A DNA stretch of 64,000 nt from an uncultured bacterium (GCA_963768625.1 CAVYIK010000003.1:454715-518714), one strand, 5' to 3'. Positions 20,161 to 27,427 are shown, counted from the first letter of the stretch. The notes: generated by a model from the sequence alone, not told the origin. Program-made: numbers and translations.

Positions 20161-20169
20161 TGCTATAAT
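20161..20169 (+). promoter_or_regulatory. Extended -10 promoter (TGCTATAAT) about 10 nt upstream of ATG 20180
   Basis: cttGCTATAATgattgaaaccATG. The first ATG (20168) lies inside the box. Confidence 0.4.
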
Positions 20170-20179
20170 GATTGAAACC

Positions 20180-20758
20180 ATGGAAGAAGCCCCCGTAACC
20201 CATCCCGGCGTCCCCGCCGACACCTATCATACGCTCGGGCCGAAGACCCTTTGGATATTTATTCTGGAGCGCGTCCAGACCTCCGCAGTACTTCTGATTG
20301 TTTCAATCGTACTTTTCGCGGTCAAAGACCAATCGTTCCTTAAAAAGATCCCCGTTGTAGGCGACGTAACCGGCTATATGAATATAATCAGCTGGAGCGT
20401 ATTCGGTCTTTTCGTCATCGCTTTTTTGATTACGTTCCTCGTTGCATGGCTCATCTATGTGAACTACAAATTCTGCCTTGGTGAAGATGCGCTGAGGATC
20501 AAGCGCGGGATTTTTAATAAGGAGGAGATCGCGATGCCTTATCGGCAGATCCAGGATGTGGATATTGAACGCGACCTTGAGTTTCAGATGCTCGGATTGA
20601 GCAAGCTCGTTATTCTCACCGCCGGCGAACAGATGGAAAAATCGGAAGAAAGCGAATCGGAGGGGGTTTTGCCGGCGGTCGACAAGGACCTCGCCGAGTG
20701 GCTCCAGGCGGAACTTTTGAAGCGCACGAACGTGCAGAAGGTGGTGGAGGAGAAATAG
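20180..20758 (+). CDS. Membrane protein with bacterial PH domain (bPH_2, YdbS/YdbT-like)
   Basis: Two TM helices followed by YKFCLGEDALRIKRGIFNKEEIAMPYRQIQDVDIERDLEFQMLGLSKLVILTAG, which is the bPH_2 pattern. Confidence 0.65.
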   Translation: MEEAPVTHPGVPADTYHTLGPKTLWIFILERVQTSAVLLIVSIVLFAVKDQSFLKKIPVVGDVTGYMNIISWSVFGLFVIAFLITFLVAWLIYVNYKFCLGEDALRIKRGIFNKEEIAMPYRQIQDVDIERDLEFQMLGLSKLVILTAGEQMEKSEESESEGVLPAVDKDLAEWLQAELLKRTNVQKVVEEK

Positions 20759-20781: not shown

Positions 20782-21087
20782 GGGGACGCACTGGTATTGA
20801 TGGGGATGCGGGATGGGTTTGCGGGCCGATGGCAACGCCGTAAGCGTTGCATCAACTAACTGCCAATCAAAAGGCGGCTCCAGCGTTCGCTTACGCGTAA
20901 CGTTGGGATCGGCGGATCCGGGTTCCTTGGGTCCATGTCCGGTCTTATATAAGGGGACTAGCGCGGGGTGGACGATTCTAAACCGCGCGCGAAAAACAGA
21001 ATCACGTTGCTAGTGTTCCACTAGACACGCCCGTAGACGGCCCATTCTCAGTATCTTCAGACGAGGGTTCGATTCCCTCCGTCTCCA
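20782..21087 (+). ncRNA. ssrA: tmRNA (SsrA)
   Basis: 5' GGGGACGCACUGGUAUUGAUGGGG. Acceptor GGGGACG pairs with CGTCTCC (21080-21086) including the G3:U pair. T-arm GAGGGTTCGATTCCCTC, discriminator A. Tag reading frame 20862-20900 encodes ANQKAAPAFAYA*. Confidence 0.85.
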
Positions 21088-22600
21088 CACCCCGTGAGTT
21101 AGAGATAGCAAAATGCTCAAAAACCCTTAAAGGAAGGGCTAACGGAGCGGTTCTAAATCCAATTCCTCGGTCATAGGAAAGCACACCCTCAAAAACGAGG
21201 TTCATTACAAGGTTCTTATCGCTCAAGTTGCCGTATTTCCACTGGCTATATGGGTTTTCTAGATAATTAAACACCATTCGCAAGGCGGTTCTAAACTCAA
21301 TTTTAGACTTCTTCGCCGGATCGTTATTTTCTTTCAGCTTTTCTTCCCGTGTTGCAAATTCTTCAATCTGCTTTTCATACTCAAGTCGGACACGATCATT
21401 ACTTGCCCGCTTCGCCAATTTAACGAGGTTTTTAATTTCATCCTCAATCCGCACAATTTCTCCCAATTCCTTCTTTTCGCTTGCGGCACGGTTTGCGATG
21501 CGCTTTCCCCATTGTTCATAAAGCATCGCTTCGCTGATCTTCAAGACGAGTGGCTTCGGCTTTATCTCTCGCAAGATGGTCTCAAATTGCCCTTCGATAA
21601 CACCAATCGGAATACTTTTTGTGTGTTCAGGGCAAGCAGTATTGTTGCAACGATAATATCCCCGCTTGTAGCCCTTCGTTTTTGTTGTATAGGAAGCCGT
21701 ATATTGACGACCGCAATTTCCGCACGCTACGAGTGTATGCCGCAGCGGAAAATCCTCTCGTATGTCCTTTCGTGTCCGCACCGGCCTACGTCCATCGAGC
21801 TTCGCGCAAATCTTTTGGAAGGTCGCCAAATCTATAAGCGGTTCGTGATGTCCTTGTCTCCGCGACACTTCCCAAGGCGTATATTCGATGAAGCCCGCGT
21901 ATATTGGGAGGCGGCTAAAAAGACGGCTCACCAACTGGAAATGGATTTTGTCTTTGCCGCAAAACTTTTCCGATTCGAGATAATGTAACACGTCGCCCTG
22001 CGTTTCAAACCGATCTACTGCAAACCCTTCGAGCGCAGTTTTAATTATCGCCGCTTCCGGTTCGTAAGGCGTTAAGAGCTTTCCATGTCCGGCTGTTTTG
22101 ACGTGTCGAAAGCCAGGTGGCGGACAAAACGGCCAGTAGCCAAGCTCCGTTCGAGCTTTTTGTTTCTGTATAACCTGCCGACGATTTAGTGCGCGATGGA
22201 GTTCAGCGTTGCCAGCCATAATAACCTCAACGTATTTCCCTTCTGGGCTATCATCAAAATCAAAATTTAAGCACTCTAGCTCCGTTTTACGATAATGAAA
22301 TGCCGCTCGCAATTTAATATGCATCTCAACATCTCGCGCCAAGCGTGAGATGTCGTCAAAAATGACGATATAGTTTTTATGAGGATGCTTGTCTATATGT
22401 TTAAGCAATTCCGTCATAGCGGGGCGACGCATAAAATCACCACCACCAGTAAAACTATCTCTAAAAACCTTCTCGATTTCATAGTTTTTCTGTTCGCAAC
22501 GAAGGCGGCATCGTTGCTCTTGGCTATCGAGGCCATGCCCTTCGGTTTTCTGCCGCTCGGATGAAACGCGGCAATATATTAATGCCTTTAGTTGGCTCAT
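21002..22600 (-). CDS. Large serine recombinase (integrase)
   Basis: Intact 532-aa ORF. Resolvase catalytic domain ALIYCRVSSERQ...DDISRLARD, a recombinase domain, zinc ribbon CGNCGRQY...YYRCNNTACPEH, and a coiled-coil. The last ~29 codons are antisense to the tmRNA 3' end. Confidence 0.85.
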   Translation of the reverse strand: MSQLKALIYCRVSSERQKTEGHGLDSQEQRCRLRCEQKNYEIEKVFRDSFTGGGDFMRRPAMTELLKHIDKHPHKNYIVIFDDISRLARDVEMHIKLRAAFHYRKTELECLNFDFDDSPEGKYVEVIMAGNAELHRALNRRQVIQKQKARTELGYWPFCPPPGFRHVKTAGHGKLLTPYEPEAAIIKTALEGFAVDRFETQGDVLHYLESEKFCGKDKIHFQLVSRLFSRLPIYAGFIEYTPWEVSRRQGHHEPLIDLATFQKICAKLDGRRPVRTRKDIREDFPLRHTLVACGNCGRQYTASYTTKTKGYKRGYYRCNNTACPEHTKSIPIGVIEGQFETILREIKPKPLVLKISEAMLYEQWGKRIANRAASEKKELGEIVRIEDEIKNLVKLAKRASNDRVRLEYEKQIEEFATREEKLKENNDPAKKSKIEFRTALRMVFNYLENPYSQWKYGNLSDKNLVMNLVFEGVLSYDRGIGFRTAPLALPLRVFEHFAISNSRGVETEGIEPSSEDTENGPSTGVSSGTLAT

Positions 22601-22758: not shown

Positions 22759-22987
22759 AGTTATTAATACAATCTAACCGCTTAATACCATTGTACCAAA
22801 CGCAATCATTCGCGCAAGTCGCCGGAATAGGATAGGTTTCCTGCCTCGTCAAAATACCTGTTAAGGACTTTCTCTAGGATGGGATGAAGCGCGTCGCGCA
22901 ATTCAAGAAGCTCCTGATCGGAGAGTTGATTTTCTGCATCTATTGTTCTTAGTTGTTCTGGCGATAACACTATTCACGGCCCGTGAA

Positions 22988-23025
22988 TTAAAAAGGACAC
23001 GAACGCTGAACGCGCCCGTGTCCTT
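22988..23025 (-). terminator. Terminator-like hairpin (minus strand) upstream of the recombinase module
   Basis: 9-bp stem aaggacacg/cgtgtcctt, followed on the minus strand by TTTTTAATT. Confidence 0.4.
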
Positions 23026-23027
23026 AA

Positions 23028-23057
23028 TTGTCAATTTCTACTTGTTGCCCCTATATT
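23028..23057 (+). promoter_or_regulatory. Candidate sigma70-type promoter (TTGTCA-18-TATATT) for the long leader of gene 23316
   Basis: aaTTGTCAatttctacttgttgccccTATATTatac. Confidence 0.35.
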
Positions 23058-23188
23058 ATACACCAACTATGTTTAGAAAGCCAGCGCTTAGAGGGATTCC
23101 TTGTTAAACGCCTCATTCGGCTCTATCATCAGGTTATAACTTAATAAAAGTCGCCTAAACCTTGCAGTAATGTGGGGCATGGCGCAAA

Positions 23189-23285
23189 AACGTTTCAGCG
23201 TATAAAGCTCCTAGTCAGAGCACGCTGAAACGTCATAGTCCGAAAGGATTATGGGTTCGCAAGAACCGCTGGCTGGGAGCTTTAT
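23189..23285 (+). promoter_or_regulatory. Structured RNA leader: 16-bp helix enclosing two GNRA-capped hairpins, plus a competing 11-bp helix (candidate riboswitch or cis-regulator)
   Basis: Helix B is 23203-23218 with 23269-23284 (16 bp, 2 G-U). Hairpin 23234-23253 has an 8-bp stem and GAAA loop. Hairpin 23254-23267 has a 5-bp stem and GCAA loop. Helix A is 23190-23200 with 23223-23233 (11 bp). The G-U pairs and GNRA loops are valid only on the plus strand. Confidence 0.5.
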
Positions 23286-23315
23286 GTTTCCGGCTCAATA
23301 AAATCCAATAAAGAC

Positions 23316-24269
23316 GTGATTAAGAAAATACTTATAATCTCATGTATTCTTGGGTTTGCAGGCTATCATATCGCTGGGGCTACATCAGGCGCGTGCTCGT
23401 CTCATGGAGGCGTAAATTGTTCGGCAATAGGTGTATATGCAACTTGCAACGATTGGACTCAAAGCAGTGTATTTTACACGGACGTGGTCGAATGCAAAAA
23501 TTCTGTTAGTTGTTATTATCCAATAGCGGCAGGATGCGTAAGCCAAGACCAATATAATCTCCTACTGAACCAAGAAGCTCAGGCGACCAATGTGAGCAAT
23601 TGGCGAGGATTTGGATATAGTGCGGATGAGATAAACCAAAAAGTAGCAGAAATATCTCAGGAGTACGATCAGAAACTTTCTCAATGCCAAACTCAAATAC
23701 AGGGATATGAACTTCAAAAAACTGCTTATCAGGAATGTCTTAATAATCAACTCAAACAGTCAGCGCAACTATTTAATCCAACGCCACTCGTCGCTCCACA
23801 AGCAACCAGCCAAAACAGTTCGAGTATAGAAGCGTACGTAAATGCGGAGATGCAAAAAGAATGCGTTGGGCGAGATCCAAATAGCTTCTATGACACACAG
23901 CGCCCAATAAAAGGGTGCAGTTGCAATGCTGGGTATATTATGAATCACAGCAATCAATGCATTCTAGTAACTCCGACCTCCACAACGACCATCTCCGCGC
24001 CGCTTCCTGCCACGACTCCCTCTACGCCTCCTGCTATACAAGGTTTTACTATTACTGCCAGTCTTTCTTTGGGAAGTTCAGGGTCAAACGTGGTTAGTCT
24101 ACAAAAGCTTTTAGAAGGGCACGGGTTCCTAGTCATGCCATCAGGGGTGTTCGAGGGATATTTTGGCGGCCTTACAAAACAAGCGCTCGTCGCCTTCCAA
24201 GCCTCTATAGGACTACCGGCAACGGGGAATTGCGGCCCAATGACCAGATCGGCGATAAACGGCCAATAA
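23316..24269 (+). CDS. Secreted Cys-rich protein with C-terminal peptidoglycan-binding domain (PG_binding_1-like)
   Basis: Signal-like N-terminus MIKKILIISCILGFAGYHIAGA. Many Cys residues and a Thr/Pro linker. C-terminal SSGSNVVSLQKLLEGHGFL...GYFGGLTKQALVAFQASIGLPATG is the PGBD pattern. GTG start. Confidence 0.6.
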   Translation: MIKKILIISCILGFAGYHIAGATSGACSSHGGVNCSAIGVYATCNDWTQSSVFYTDVVECKNSVSCYYPIAAGCVSQDQYNLLLNQEAQATNVSNWRGFGYSADEINQKVAEISQEYDQKLSQCQTQIQGYELQKTAYQECLNNQLKQSAQLFNPTPLVAPQATSQNSSSIEAYVNAEMQKECVGRDPNSFYDTQRPIKGCSCNAGYIMNHSNQCILVTPTSTTTISAPLPATTPSTPPAIQGFTITASLSLGSSGSNVVSLQKLLEGHGFLVMPSGVFEGYFGGLTKQALVAFQASIGLPATGNCGPMTRSAINGQ

Positions 24270-24275
24270 GTTTTC

Positions 24276-24938
24276 ATGGAAAACAAAACCCTTTCCCATC
24301 TGAACTCAAAAGTGTGGTACAGACTTTTGAAGGTAATTTTTATTGTTGCGTTCTTTATTGTTTTGGCGGCCTATAATTTCATCATTTTTTCTAGCGGGAT
24401 TAGGCAGCTCGACCAAAATAGAACAACCATTAAATGCAATGTTTTCGGTAACGCATCGTTTAGCCCCGCGAGCATCAACATTTCCATTGATCCATCTTAC
24501 TTCAGCAATGGACAGTTCAACTATATAGGTTTCTTTCACGGCTATAACGACTATGAAACGATGGCGATATTGAAGCGCTGCGGGAATTTTACTCCGGTGG
24601 TCGCCAATGCCGACAGCTACGACGAACAGGAATTACAAGATATTATCTACGACAATGGGTTCACCGGTATCACTAATTGGACGCCCCAACAGGTTGATAC
24701 CATCAACACCGCATTTGAAATTTACCAACAACGAACGAAGGACTCTTTTGAAGGCGACAATCAAAAAGCCCAATACTTAGATTTCAGTTCCACAATGTTT
24801 GAGGTTCAGCCGGTATTCGCCTACAACCAATTTCGAGAACTTTTCGTTATCGGCAATCTGCTAATCCTACTCGTCTTTGAAGCGATGAGAAGGATATTCT
24901 ATTACGTAATTTTAGGGAGTTTAGGGCCTGCGAAATAG
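24276..24938 (+). CDS. Hypothetical membrane protein (N- and C-terminal TM helices)
   Basis: Intact 220-aa AT-rich ORF. TM helices VIFIVAFFIVLAAYNFIIF and LFVIGNLLILLVF. No family recognised. Confidence 0.45.
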   Translation: MENKTLSHLNSKVWYRLLKVIFIVAFFIVLAAYNFIIFSSGIRQLDQNRTTIKCNVFGNASFSPASINISIDPSYFSNGQFNYIGFFHGYNDYETMAILKRCGNFTPVVANADSYDEQELQDIIYDNGFTGITNWTPQQVDTINTAFEIYQQRTKDSFEGDNQKAQYLDFSSTMFEVQPVFAYNQFRELFVIGNLLILLVFEAMRRIFYYVILGSLGPAK

Positions 24939-24942
24939 CCGA

Positions 24943-25410
24943 TCACGAATACTCCGGCCGGACAAGATGCTTGCGCATGTTTCTTACATAATCTTCGCCC
25001 TCTAAATCTTGGAGCATTCGCAATACCCGTTGTATTTTTTCTTGATCTTCAGGGCAGTTACCAAACATAATCGGGATTGGTAGTTTATTATTGGCATTCT
25101 GTTCTTGTCTCGCCCTATCGGTCAATCCAAGCAGCTTAAAGGCGAGGAGAAGCTCACTTACTCGATCCTGTGGCTTGTCTTTAATGTCCTCAACGAGTGA
25201 TTTTACGACCAAATCAGCATCCAGCCCGTTGGCCGTCAGAGATTCGCTGATAGTCCTTTGAATGTTAGGTTTTGTTAGGTTTTCGCTCCCTATAGCCCGC
25301 GCCGTAGCCCTTTTCGCTGGCTTGTAGACGCGATTAGCCGCTTCAGTAGCATTTCCCCTTTCAATGTACTCCTGAATGAACTGGCTTTGCTTTGAGGTTA
25401 ATTTCCGCAT
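24943..25410 (-). CDS. Terminase small subunit-like HTH protein (Terminase_2-type), copy 1
   Basis: LTSKQSQFIQEYIERGNATEAANRVYKPAKRATARAIGSENLTKPNIQ matches the TerS N-terminal HTH signature. Confidence 0.65.
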   Translation of the reverse strand: MRKLTSKQSQFIQEYIERGNATEAANRVYKPAKRATARAIGSENLTKPNIQRTISESLTANGLDADLVVKSLVEDIKDKPQDRVSELLLAFKLLGLTDRARQEQNANNKLPIPIMFGNCPEDQEKIQRVLRMLQDLEGEDYVRNMRKHLVRPEYS

Positions 25411-25426
25411 AACGCTTCCATTTCGT

Positions 25427-25870
25427 TTAATCGCTTTTTTGAATTTCCTCTGCGCGGGTGGCGATCATCATATCTCCTATAACCGTTCCATGTTTAACGC
25501 CATTTTGCTCAGCGATTTCCGGCGCAACGACAATAATTTTTGTTACCTGAGGCTTATCTTGAAGTTGGGGTTTCGATTTATCGACGAAATAGCCAGCCCG
25601 ATCAAGAATATCCCGACTGGCGTTTAGTCGGACAGCCTCATTCTTTGCCCTCTGAGAGAGCCGATATACCTCAGCCATCGCATCAGCCGCACTTGCCTCT
25701 AAATACGCCTTAATCGTAGGTTTCCGTAGGTTCTCTGCCCCTATGGCGTGCGCTGTATTGCGGTTCTTGGCCTTATAGGCGCGATCTGTCGCTTCGGTAG
25801 CATTTCCCGTTTCTAAATATGACGCAACGAATTTAGTTTGTTTTTTCGTTAATTCTGCCCTCATATTCAA
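25427..25870 (-). CDS. Terminase small subunit-like HTH protein (Terminase_2-type), copy 2
   Basis: LTKKQTKFVASYLETGNATEATDRAYKAKNRNTAHAIGAENLRKPTIK. Tandem paralogue of 24943-25410. Confidence 0.65.
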   Translation of the reverse strand: MNMRAELTKKQTKFVASYLETGNATEATDRAYKAKNRNTAHAIGAENLRKPTIKAYLEASAADAMAEVYRLSQRAKNEAVRLNASRDILDRAGYFVDKSKPQLQDKPQVTKIIVVAPEIAEQNGVKHGTVIGDMMIATRAEEIQKSD

Positions 25871-26407: not shown

Positions 26408-27427
26408 TCAATCGTCGTACACGTGCCGTGGCCAGCGGGAGCGGGAATATGATTCTATCTCGCTCAGCTTCAGCGAAGTGGAAATGTTCCCCGTTCTCAC
26501 GTAGAACTGTTCATTATTGTCGGCTTTGAGATAAACCGGCCGGGGGCTCGCGAGCACTTGGACAATGCAGAGATCGTGACTATCTAATTTGTGGAACCAT
26601 AGTTTGATCAAGCTGCGGAATTCCGGACCGATCATGCTGTTGAATGCCTGAGTAAAATGGTTTTCAAAGCCATCCGCGTCTTTTCTTTGAAGCGTTTGAT
26701 AGTCGTCCTCAAGGCCTAGGGGCGTCCGCGAGTCGTTTACCCCCAGGATCAAGTGCCCGCCCCTTGAGTTCAAAAAGGCAGCAACCGTTTTCATCCCCGC
26801 CTTTTCGATCTCGCGGTTTGCTTGGCCGGTTTTATGGTCAAACCGCAAAGACGATTTAAACTCCAGCCTGTCGTGCTCATTTTCCGAGAGGAGCTGCCGG
26901 AGGTCAGGCGCTCCCTTGAATGTGCTCTCGTGAGTATTGTTCTCGCGCCGAACGAGGTTGATAAAATTCCCCGGTCGCGAGATGCAAGTTAAGTTGAAAG
27001 ATGATGTGCCGGTCTCTGCGTGGATGGATCCATAATGAAAAAGTTTTCCCAGAAGATTTGATGAAGCAGTAAACGTCGTAGCATTGTTCACCCGAAATGC
27101 CCCTTCCTTCTTTAAGAAAATGCCCCGCGCGTAAGCAATCGAACCGGGGCGGATAACGTAGTACTCGTAATACCAAGAAAGGAACGCATATACGGTGACC
27201 GCAAATTGCGCTCCGGAGAGGAATAATATTTTTGCGATCTGGTAGGAAAGAAAGCTTGAAAAAGAAAGCTGCGTGTAAAGTTCATACTTTACATTGCCGA
27301 GCATGGCGGCTCCGAGATAAAGCAAAAATCCCGCAATCTCAATGATTGCGAATTTCCATACGAGAACAACGGGGCTCCGCTTGATCATGCGGCCCTCGTC
27401 CCATCCATGGACGCCCGGGGTTTTCAT
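26408..27427 (-). CDS. Membrane bPH_2-like module fused to an AlbA_2 (Schlafen-type putative nucleic-acid-binding) domain
   Basis: Intact 339-aa ORF. Three or more N-terminal TM helices and YYVIRPGSIAYARGIFLKKEGAFRVNN (bPH_2-like). The C-terminal ENEHDRLEFKSSLRFD...FLNSRGGHLILGVND...FYVRTGN is the AlbA_2 signature. Confidence 0.6.
   Translation of the reverse strand: MKTPGVHGWDEGRMIKRSPVVLVWKFAIIEIAGFLLYLGAAMLGNVKYELYTQLSFSSFLSYQIAKILFLSGAQFAVTVYAFLSWYYEYYVIRPGSIAYARGIFLKKEGAFRVNNATTFTASSNLLGKLFHYGSIHAETGTSSFNLTCISRPGNFINLVRRENNTHESTFKGAPDLRQLLSENEHDRLEFKSSLRFDHKTGQANREIEKAGMKTVAAFLNSRGGHLILGVNDSRTPLGLEDDYQTLQRKDADGFENHFTQAFNSMIGPEFRSLIKLWFHKLDSHDLCIVQVLASPRPVYLKADNNEQFYVRTGNISTSLKLSEIESYSRSRWPRHVYDD

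Follow-up and report, generated by a model that had tools for sequence, protein, structure and literature searches.

A full-length copy of LOOT RNA (Rfam RF03000) was found at positions 23152-23267 on the plus strand of a 64,000-nucleotide (nt) stretch of DNA from an uncultured bacterium (GCA_963768625.1, CAVYIK010000003.1:454715-518714; the whole stretch is hereafter the window, and positions are counted from its first letter). Beyond the catalogued motif, the RNA can form a second long helix (helix B), which crosses the long helix (helix A) on which the main LOOT hairpin is based. Both helices are conserved with compensatory changes among relatives of the element, and at full length the two would exclude each other by geometry. 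We tentatively propose that LOOT is a promoter-proximal attenuator with helix A as its anti-terminator and helix B as its terminator, a reading to which we give somewhat less than an even chance.

LOOT was identified by scanning the whole window with Rfam 15; RF03000 scored 93.8 bits against a gathering threshold of 46.4 (E = 1.1e-16) over the full model, positions 1-121. The original prediction, made from the sequence alone, had matched the element to no class; the covariance-model scan, a check that it had itself suggested, overturned this point. When 23080-23340 was scanned permissively, no Rfam match other than LOOT was detected at E up to 10, riboswitch families included. Likewise, the known self-cleaving ribozyme classes gave no match at the gathering threshold in the whole window or at E up to 10 in 23080-23340. 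The RF03000 model comprises a 5' hairpin, an AAAA linker, a long hairpin (P3) based on helix A and two GNRA hairpins, and the window was found to have the same 5' hairpin with its CCUAAAC/GCAUGG internal loop, the same linker, the long hairpin and both GNRA hairpins. The conserved 5'-domain letters read GCCUAAAC at 23153-23160 and GCAUGG at 23177-23182. The apical stem of P3 is 4 bp in the window vs 8 in the Rfam consensus, and several of its positions are non-standard.

The Rfam model ends with the P5 hairpin at 23267 and so leaves helix B outside; the U tract, a tail hairpin (P6) and a conserved 5' leader are also missing from it. The true span of the element would be from about 23136 (the probable transcription start) or 23152 (the Rfam start) to about 23295. 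The bounds given in the original prediction, 23189-23285, thus take in the core structure and are too narrow at the 5' side, where the domain at 23152-23184 was missed. We presume that the LOOT motif originates from the work of Weinberg et al. in 2017. The main text of that paper does not discuss LOOT (PMC5737381). LOOT has been described as a metagenome-based motif of the ZWD collection (Breaker and Weinberg groups) that was added in Rfam 14 (PMC7779021), and it is mentioned for R-scape refinements (PMC11701678) and for unusual cross-covariation (PMC7657543); none of these three papers assigns it a function. The Rfam type of the family is 'Gene; sRNA' (small RNA). LOOT is an orphan family that was already catalogued, so the element is not a new class. 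Helix B, the U tract, the promoter-leader layout, a receptor-like loop and the mobile-island context were not found in the Rfam model or in the LOOT literature, the original supplement excepted.

The pairings that had been predicted in the window (helix A, helix B and the hairpins capped by GAAA and GCAA) were checked by script, pair by pair, and all were recovered in place (Table 1). Helix B can be extended to 17 pairs by A23202-U23285. The four strands are ordered A5, B5, A3, B3 (5' and 3' strands of helices A and B), and the two helices have no nucleotide in common. The spacer between A5 and B5 consists of 23201-23202 only, and B5 covers the apical internal loop of P3, its 4-bp apical stem (23207-23210 with 23218-23221) and its apical loop. 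Plus-strand RNA of 23180-23300 folds at -55.5 kcal/mol (z = -7.99), and none of 200 shuffles folded as well, so the structure is beyond chance on this strand; the minus strand gave z = -3.87. No open reading frame (ORF) of at least 40 amino acids (aa) covers 23108-23315 on either strand.

Relatives were collected by scanning viral contigs, species-representative genomes and metagenome contigs with a pattern for the conserved 5' domain. The first pattern gave 73 matches in the viral contigs, 4 of them LOOT-like; the species-representative genomes and the metagenome contigs gave at least 120 pattern matches each. Names of Patescibacteria (the Candidate Phyla Radiation, CPR) were borne by 53 of the 80 genome matches listed. 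Eighteen loci in metagenome-assembled genomes (MAGs) with other labels were re-scanned: 12 matched the pattern by chance (among them Bacteroidota and Deltaproteobacteria) and 6 were true LOOT RNAs, in MAGs tagged 'Gammaproteobacteria', 'Flavobacteriaceae' or just 'bacterium'. Altogether, 213 unique copies were kept with their flanks, 158 of these were cleanly parsed, and 105 low-redundancy representatives were chosen. The representatives and the window (106 sequences) were aligned by MAFFT, which does not fit structure; each sequence included the element, the 22 nt before it and the 36 nt that follow P5. Column-based values below refer to this alignment. The retrieval pattern fixed the letters CCUAAA/CAUGG, the covariation of which is therefore not assessable in this sample.

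Judged by its pattern of sequence change, helix B is a real, conserved feature of the LOOT family. Standard pairs filled 88.8% of helix B cells vs 72.5% in shuffled alignments, and none of 500 shuffles reached the observed value. Cells changed on both sides numbered 301 vs 95 in shuffles, and the covariation score was 0.542 vs at most 0.196 when the partners were slid by 1-3 columns. Compensatory changes were detected in 15 of the 16 pairs, one of which occurs as GC (31 copies), CG (27), AU (22), UG (17) and UA (5), with 2 copies unpaired. The covariation spans the full length of the helix, including its A/U-rich end (columns 124-127 with 237-240). By an alignment-free approach, B5 was found to pair with its own tail at -18.1 kcal/mol vs -10.9 with the tails of other copies (p = 1.5e-17), and a helix B of at least 12 bp can be formed in 101 of the 106 copies. 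Two U-G wobbles in helix B are conserved, in 69 and 84 of 106 copies. On the minus strand these would be C-A mismatches, which argues that LOOT works as a plus-strand RNA; the strandedness originally claimed thus holds.

Helix A could not be read from columns in the same way. Its sequence is hypervariable and was therefore misaligned by MAFFT, with 42-60% of cells paired, and for this reason it was assessed by own-vs-other partner energies and by contiguous pairs. By this approach, A5 was found to pair with its own A3 at -16.4 kcal/mol vs -4.7 with the A3 of another copy (p = 1e-18). At least 8 contiguous base pairs are present in 91 of 105 copies, and all four types of Watson-Crick pair occur at positions 3-10. 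Despite its hypervariability, helix A contains only ~2% G-U pairs vs 12-40% in the other LOOT helices, and a hypervariable helix with so few wobbles may be a specificity determinant. Among those other helices, P1 (90.5% paired) and P2 (92.0%) both have compensatory changes; P4 is 96.8% paired with compensatory changes in 8 of 8 pairs, and G115, A116, A117 and A118 of its loop are conserved. The homologue comparison proposed with the original prediction thus found covariation in both long helices. The LOOT RNA of locus L257 (metagenome contig VFSW01089789.1) has helix A and helix B sequences wholly different from those of the window, with the pairing kept. As L257 also has the island most closely related to that of the window, such differences indicate that LOOT helices turn over quickly.

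Throughout the family, helices A and B would be mutually exclusive on the basis of A-form dimensions. Median values are 23 nt for the loop that helix A closes, 18 bp for helix B, and 0 and 2 nt for the linkers between the two. With so little slack, one strand of a duplex of 18 bp could not bring its two ends back to the same closing pair, hence full-length helix A and full-length helix B should not coexist. Since both helices are under selection, LOOT is expected either to adopt two alternative states or to pass through them in an ordered succession. The view that the helices cross and can hardly coexist, taken before from the window by itself, thus extends to its relatives, and the architecture of a two-state switch would be a property of the family.

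The fold predicted as most stable was found to depend on transcript length. For a window transcript ending at 23288, the fold with helix B (fold B) was the minimum free energy (MFE) structure at -61.0 kcal/mol vs -55.8 for the fold with helix A (fold A). When the transcript was extended through 23300, fold A plus P6 reached -68.0 vs -61.0 kcal/mol for fold B. Across the family, transcripts ending 0-8 nt beyond P5 had fold A as the MFE structure in 94% of copies; at 24 nt fold B took this place in 57%, and from 40 nt onwards fold A did so again in ~70%, with the tail hairpin present in ~70%. RNAfold ignores pseudoknots, and these values speak for near-equal stabilities and for a conserved segment that competes for B3, not for kinetics. 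The competitor is segment z, which pairs inside B3 to form P6. Family support for P6 is moderate (mean z -1.44, 37% of copies below -2); its hairpin energy was -11.4 vs -9.0 in a control region (p = 7e-4), and it received further support at p = 1e-3.

LOOT copies also appear to have a promoter of their own. The motif A[CT]A[AG][CT]T was detected upstream in 71 of 105 copies and served to align the upstream sequences. Relative to this motif, these 71 of 105 copies show the TTG of a -35 element at -36 and a box similar to TATAAT spanning -13 to -8, preceded by a G at -14. This -35/-10 spacing makes the first A of the motif the likely transcription start, and the window has the same layout with a start near 23136. 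The promoter described before, about 160 nt upstream, does correspond to a consensus match (at 23028-23057); the family-conserved one, however, is nearer to the element (Table 1). The putative leader, with the consensus ACAAYUNAAUA, precedes P1, with which the Rfam model starts, by 8-32 nt (10-25 in most cases). Its positions +7 to +10 are conserved outside the search pattern (A 91%, A 80%, U 80% and A 59%). No convincing pairing partner was found for the leader motif. Pairing with the U-rich tail was considered, as AUAA/UUAU in the window looked compensatory, and was rejected when other copies disagreed and the own-vs-other comparison proved marginal (p = 0.04).

At the other end, a T run of at least 3 occurs ~15 nt after P5, just past a G-rich block, in 97 of the 105 representatives, and in 93 of those 97 it contains at least 6 T in 9 nt (background T fraction, 0.31). 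The G-rich block and U tract look like the signature of an intrinsic terminator with helix B as its stem. In the window, helix B is a GC-rich stem followed by a U-rich tract, as in a terminator. The 'loop' of this stem is ~50 nt with two hairpins instead of one short loop, and a terminator scan for loops of 3-8 nt misses it.

The dominant ORF downstream of LOOT has the same orientation as the RNA in 85 of 97 loci and the opposite one in 2, in comparison to upstream genes that stand in either orientation (43 to 37). The downstream ORF begins no more than a few tens of nt from P5, which in most loci leaves too little room for a separate promoter. The 103 downstream proteins fell into 65 Pfam families, the top one (Trypsin_2) with 5 members; trypsin-like peptidases, DNA methylases, zinc ribbons, DUF805, PG_binding_1, Ltp, Mrr and SNase are among them. 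Such variety argues against a metabolite riboswitch of one specific pathway. The element had been taken for the leader of a gene encoding a secreted peptidoglycan (PG)-binding protein. A co-oriented gene of this kind does start at 23316, behind an element with its own putative promoter, and to this extent the view stands; the association is not specific, given the families found elsewhere, and the link of LOOT to the PG-binding gene is incidental.

The 5' domain resembles a known tertiary-contact motif. The classic 11-nt receptor for GAAA tetraloops has the sequence CCUAAG/UAUGG (PMC11381326). The LOOT sequence, CCUAAA/CAUGG, agrees with it at 9 of 11 letters and has an equivalent helical context; the two substitutions affect the partners of the receptor's G-U wobble, which becomes an A-C juxtaposition in LOOT. 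The P4 hairpin with its near-invariant GAAA loop is located 50 nt downstream of this receptor-like loop, and we infer that P4 docks on it. As the 5' domain and P4 flank helix A, such a contact would hold the ends of helix A together and favor fold A. The receptor reading would also account for most of the conserved unpaired letters of LOOT, thus leaving little for a ligand pocket.

A subset of copies has a further element. Repeats of A5 of 10 nt or more were detected in 12 of 106 copies vs 3 of 630 controls. Ten of the 12 repeats (10-13 nt, exact) are located 38-75 nt after P5 (loci L077, L085, L096, L100, L106, L195, L217, L280, L292 and L299), just before the downstream start codon in the copies inspected by eye; in L139 and L249 a 10-nt repeat is more than 1 kb away. 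The repeat was rejected as a general feature of LOOT, since A3 compared with the downstream region gave p = 0.18 over all loci, and was retained for the subset only. On the opposite strand, no extra copies were found.

Under the attenuator model, LOOT would be transcribed from its own promoter, starting near 23136, at the head of a cargo operon. In fold A, the read-through state, helix A would close P3, with the GAAA loop of P4 docked in the 5' domain to clamp the ends of helix A, and B3 would be left free or be captured by segment z in P6. In fold B, the termination state, B3 would invade the apical loop of P3 to form a helix B of 16-17 bp. Since helix B uses nearly the whole helix A loop, helix A must then open. 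Helix B, with its GC-rich top, followed by the U tract would halt transcription at about 23286-23290, upstream of the cargo genes, so that a short LOOT RNA of ~150 nt is set free. Where a downstream A5 copy is present, A3 freed in fold B could also mask translation initiation. This layout is similar to that of riboswitch and attenuator platforms in that exclusive helices, one of them with a U tract, are found between a promoter and a co-oriented gene, and in that the predicted fold preference shifts as the transcript grows. By contrast to those platforms, the putative terminator stem of LOOT is long-range and encloses two hairpins, its helices exclude each other by geometry instead of by common nucleotides, and no link to a pathway was found for it.

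Several points weigh against this model. Termination and switching are deduced from sequence throughout, and termination itself, the default fold and the tetraloop-receptor clamp are all putative. The exclusion of helices A and B is geometric, as they have no common nucleotides, and the alternation of MFE structures reflects in part that RNAfold is blind to pseudoknots. A branched insert of ~50 nt is unusual for a terminator stem, and because the leading U residues of the tract pair within helix B, their conservation may be structural and not a signal for termination. P6 is only moderately supported, with a z of -1.5 in the window, and the window has no downstream copy of A5. The classification of LOOT as an sRNA gene in Rfam also stands against an attenuator.

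This classification would suit a stand-alone, trans-acting LOOT sRNA of ~150 nt, for which helix B and the U tract form a constitutive terminator with some leakage into the downstream gene and no regulatory decision, and helix A is a folding intermediate or a minor conformer. Such an RNA would be consistent with a strong U tract after a GC-rich stem, with fold B as the MFE structure at the U tract (in the window and in 57% of the family) and with downstream genes that have no common function. We nevertheless consider it rather unlikely: strict compensation would hardly be expected in helix A if it were just an intermediate, 85 of 97 loci have a co-oriented gene downstream, mostly with too little space for a separate promoter, and the competitor for B3 (segment z) is enriched. 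A ligand-sensing riboswitch, in which the P1-P5 core binds a metabolite, ion or second messenger that stabilizes fold A or fold B, appears distinctly less probable. Genes of many kinds, secreted proteins among their products, can lie behind riboswitches that sense global signals, and the order of aptamer and then terminator platform is as expected for a riboswitch. However, the 65 downstream families include no dominant pathway, and LOOT matched no known riboswitch family. Apart from its GNRA loops, its receptor-like loop and its paired nucleotides, LOOT also has few conserved positions from which a pocket could be built.

More probable than a riboswitch by a little, although unlikely as well, is that LOOT acts as a self-specific attenuator of Patescibacteria mobile elements, with helix A as its address for dosage or immunity control of the cargo. 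A short LOOT RNA in fold B, with A3 and A5 exposed, would here pair in trans with nascent LOOT transcripts that have an identical helix A sequence, prevent their helix A from forming and force termination at helix B; it might also cover the start region where an A5 copy exists. Such control would be similar to that by CI of satellite phage P4 or Gifsy-1 IsrK, but with an unrelated fold held by a tetraloop-receptor contact. In phage P4, the CI RNA is complementary to the repeats seqA and seqC, and a model based on a short terminated RNA has been put forward for this system and for IsrK (PMC4825925). Like P4 CI, P1 c4 and Gifsy-1 IsrK, LOOT is a leader in mobile elements with possible short and read-through forms, and about a tenth of LOOT copies have an A3 complementary to flanking direct repeats (A5 and its copy), an arrangement that parallels seqA, CI and seqC. 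The islands with serine recombinases and terminase small subunits would fit as well, as would a hypervariable helix A with ~2% G-U as a specificity determinant that has more than one partner. By contrast, the permissive Rfam scan of 23080-23340 (E up to 10) matched LOOT to no C4- or CI-type family, and the repeat is missing from the window and from most copies (p = 0.18 over all loci, as above). The lack of extra opposite-strand copies also counts against it. Least probable, and in our estimate very unlikely, is that shortened forms of helices A and B are present together in one compact, pseudoknotted structure, which might be a ribozyme. Mobile elements often carry self-cleaving ribozymes, and the strand order A5, B5, A3, B3 without common nucleotides is indeed the topology of a pseudoknot. 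Shortened helices, however, are at odds with covariation along the full length of helix B, A/U-rich end included, and linkers of 0 and 2 nt allow no slack; no ribozyme family was matched. A nested double pseudoknot like that of the hepatitis delta virus (HDV) ribozyme was also considered, since the strand order fits, and was rejected because the pairing of the apical loop with the tail covaries strongly, unlike L3 of HDV-like ribozymes.

The attenuator that we favor would be located in a mobile island. Between roughly 21.0 and 26.0 kb the GC content of the window falls from ~55% to ~44-46%, which delimits an island of ~5 kb beside the gene for transfer-messenger RNA (tmRNA). Its order is the tmRNA 3' end, a large serine recombinase (minus strand), two small ORFs (minus), LOOT (plus), the PG-binding and 220-aa genes (plus) and two Terminase_2 genes (minus), so that LOOT heads the only plus-strand operon of the island. 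The last ~29 codons of the recombinase overlap the 3' end of the tmRNA gene (21002-21090). A direct repeat of the tmRNA 3' end was not found in the window at up to 3 mismatches, and the far boundary of the island is therefore set by GC content only. The island looks like a small integrative element of the phage-satellite type. Among LOOT loci in general, large serine recombinases are the commonest upstream family (8 of 80 upstream neighbors), and a homologue of the window recombinase was detected by tblastn in the flanks of 34 of 151 loci, 30 of these upstream and mostly divergent. Related layouts were found in L257, L180 and L294; L257 is the closest relative of the window's island, with a recombinase 67% identical and both small ORFs conserved.

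Other features were noted in and around the island. A strong terminator-like hairpin on the minus strand (22993-23025; 14 pairs and then TTTAATT) lies between LOOT and a 54-aa ORF (22806-22970, minus), ~165 nt upstream of that ORF, and adjoins the plus-strand promoter-like match at 23028-23057. Proteins with a bPH_2 domain are encoded on both sides of the island (20168-20758, plus; 26408-27427, minus). The latter also carries a Schlafen AlbA_2 domain, and a 41% identical homologue is encoded upstream of the LOOT RNA of L169.

Table 1. Positions of LOOT and of neighboring features in the window. Pairing partners are given with each strand; promoter, start, leader and terminator entries are predictions.
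Feature	Position	Strand	Remarks
tmRNA gene	20782-21090	+	3' end overlapped by recombinase 3' end
Large serine recombinase, 532 aa	21002-22600	-	Divergent from LOOT
Second promoter-like match	23028-23057	+	Consensus match; not the family-conserved site
Promoter-like site	23101-23129	+	-35 TTGTTA, 17-nt spacer, -10 TATCAT; 9/12 consensus match
Probable start and conserved leader	23136-23147	+	ATAACTTAATAA; family consensus ACAAYUNAAUA
LOOT 5' domain	23152-23184	+	Rfam alignment; internal loop CCUAAAC/GCAUGG
P1	23152-23155 with 23181-23184	+	Rfam alignment
P2	23160-23166 with 23171-23177	+	Rfam alignment
AAAA linker, 5' domain to helix A	23186-23189	+	Conserved in Rfam consensus
Helix A 5' strand (A5)	23190-23200	+	Pairs with 23223-23233
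Helix B 5' strand (B5)	23203-23218	+	Pairs with 23269-23284
Helix A 3' strand (A3)	23223-23233	+	11 Watson-Crick pairs with A5
P4 hairpin	23234-23253	+	8 bp, near-invariant GAAA loop
P5 hairpin	23254-23267	+	5 bp, GCAA loop
Helix B 3' strand (B3)	23269-23284	+	16 pairs with B5, two of them U-G
U-rich tract	23281-23289	+	UUUAUGUUU; overlaps and follows end of helix B; terminator-like
Segment z	23286-23295	+	Pairs with 23271-23280 inside B3, giving tail hairpin P6
Downstream gene	23316-24269	+	GTG start; 317 aa; C-terminal PG_binding_1; N-terminus MIKKILIISCILGFAG resembles signal peptide
220-aa ORF	24276-24938	+	No Pfam match; follows PG-binding gene
Terminase_2 small-subunit genes, paralogous	24943-25410, 25427-25870	-	

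For the window alone, the outcome is mainly a correct annotation. For the family, the catalogued LOOT motif appears to be only part of a unit that further includes a leader, a second, exclusive and covarying helix and a terminator-like U tract. This unit lies ahead of cargo genes of many kinds, frequently close to a large serine recombinase and mostly in Patescibacteria, a group in which, to our knowledge, almost nothing is known of gene regulation. If the proposed switch is true, LOOT would gain a specific mechanism that can be tested, an extension of the Rfam model would be warranted, and the family would provide another case of helices that are made exclusive by geometry and not by common nucleotides.

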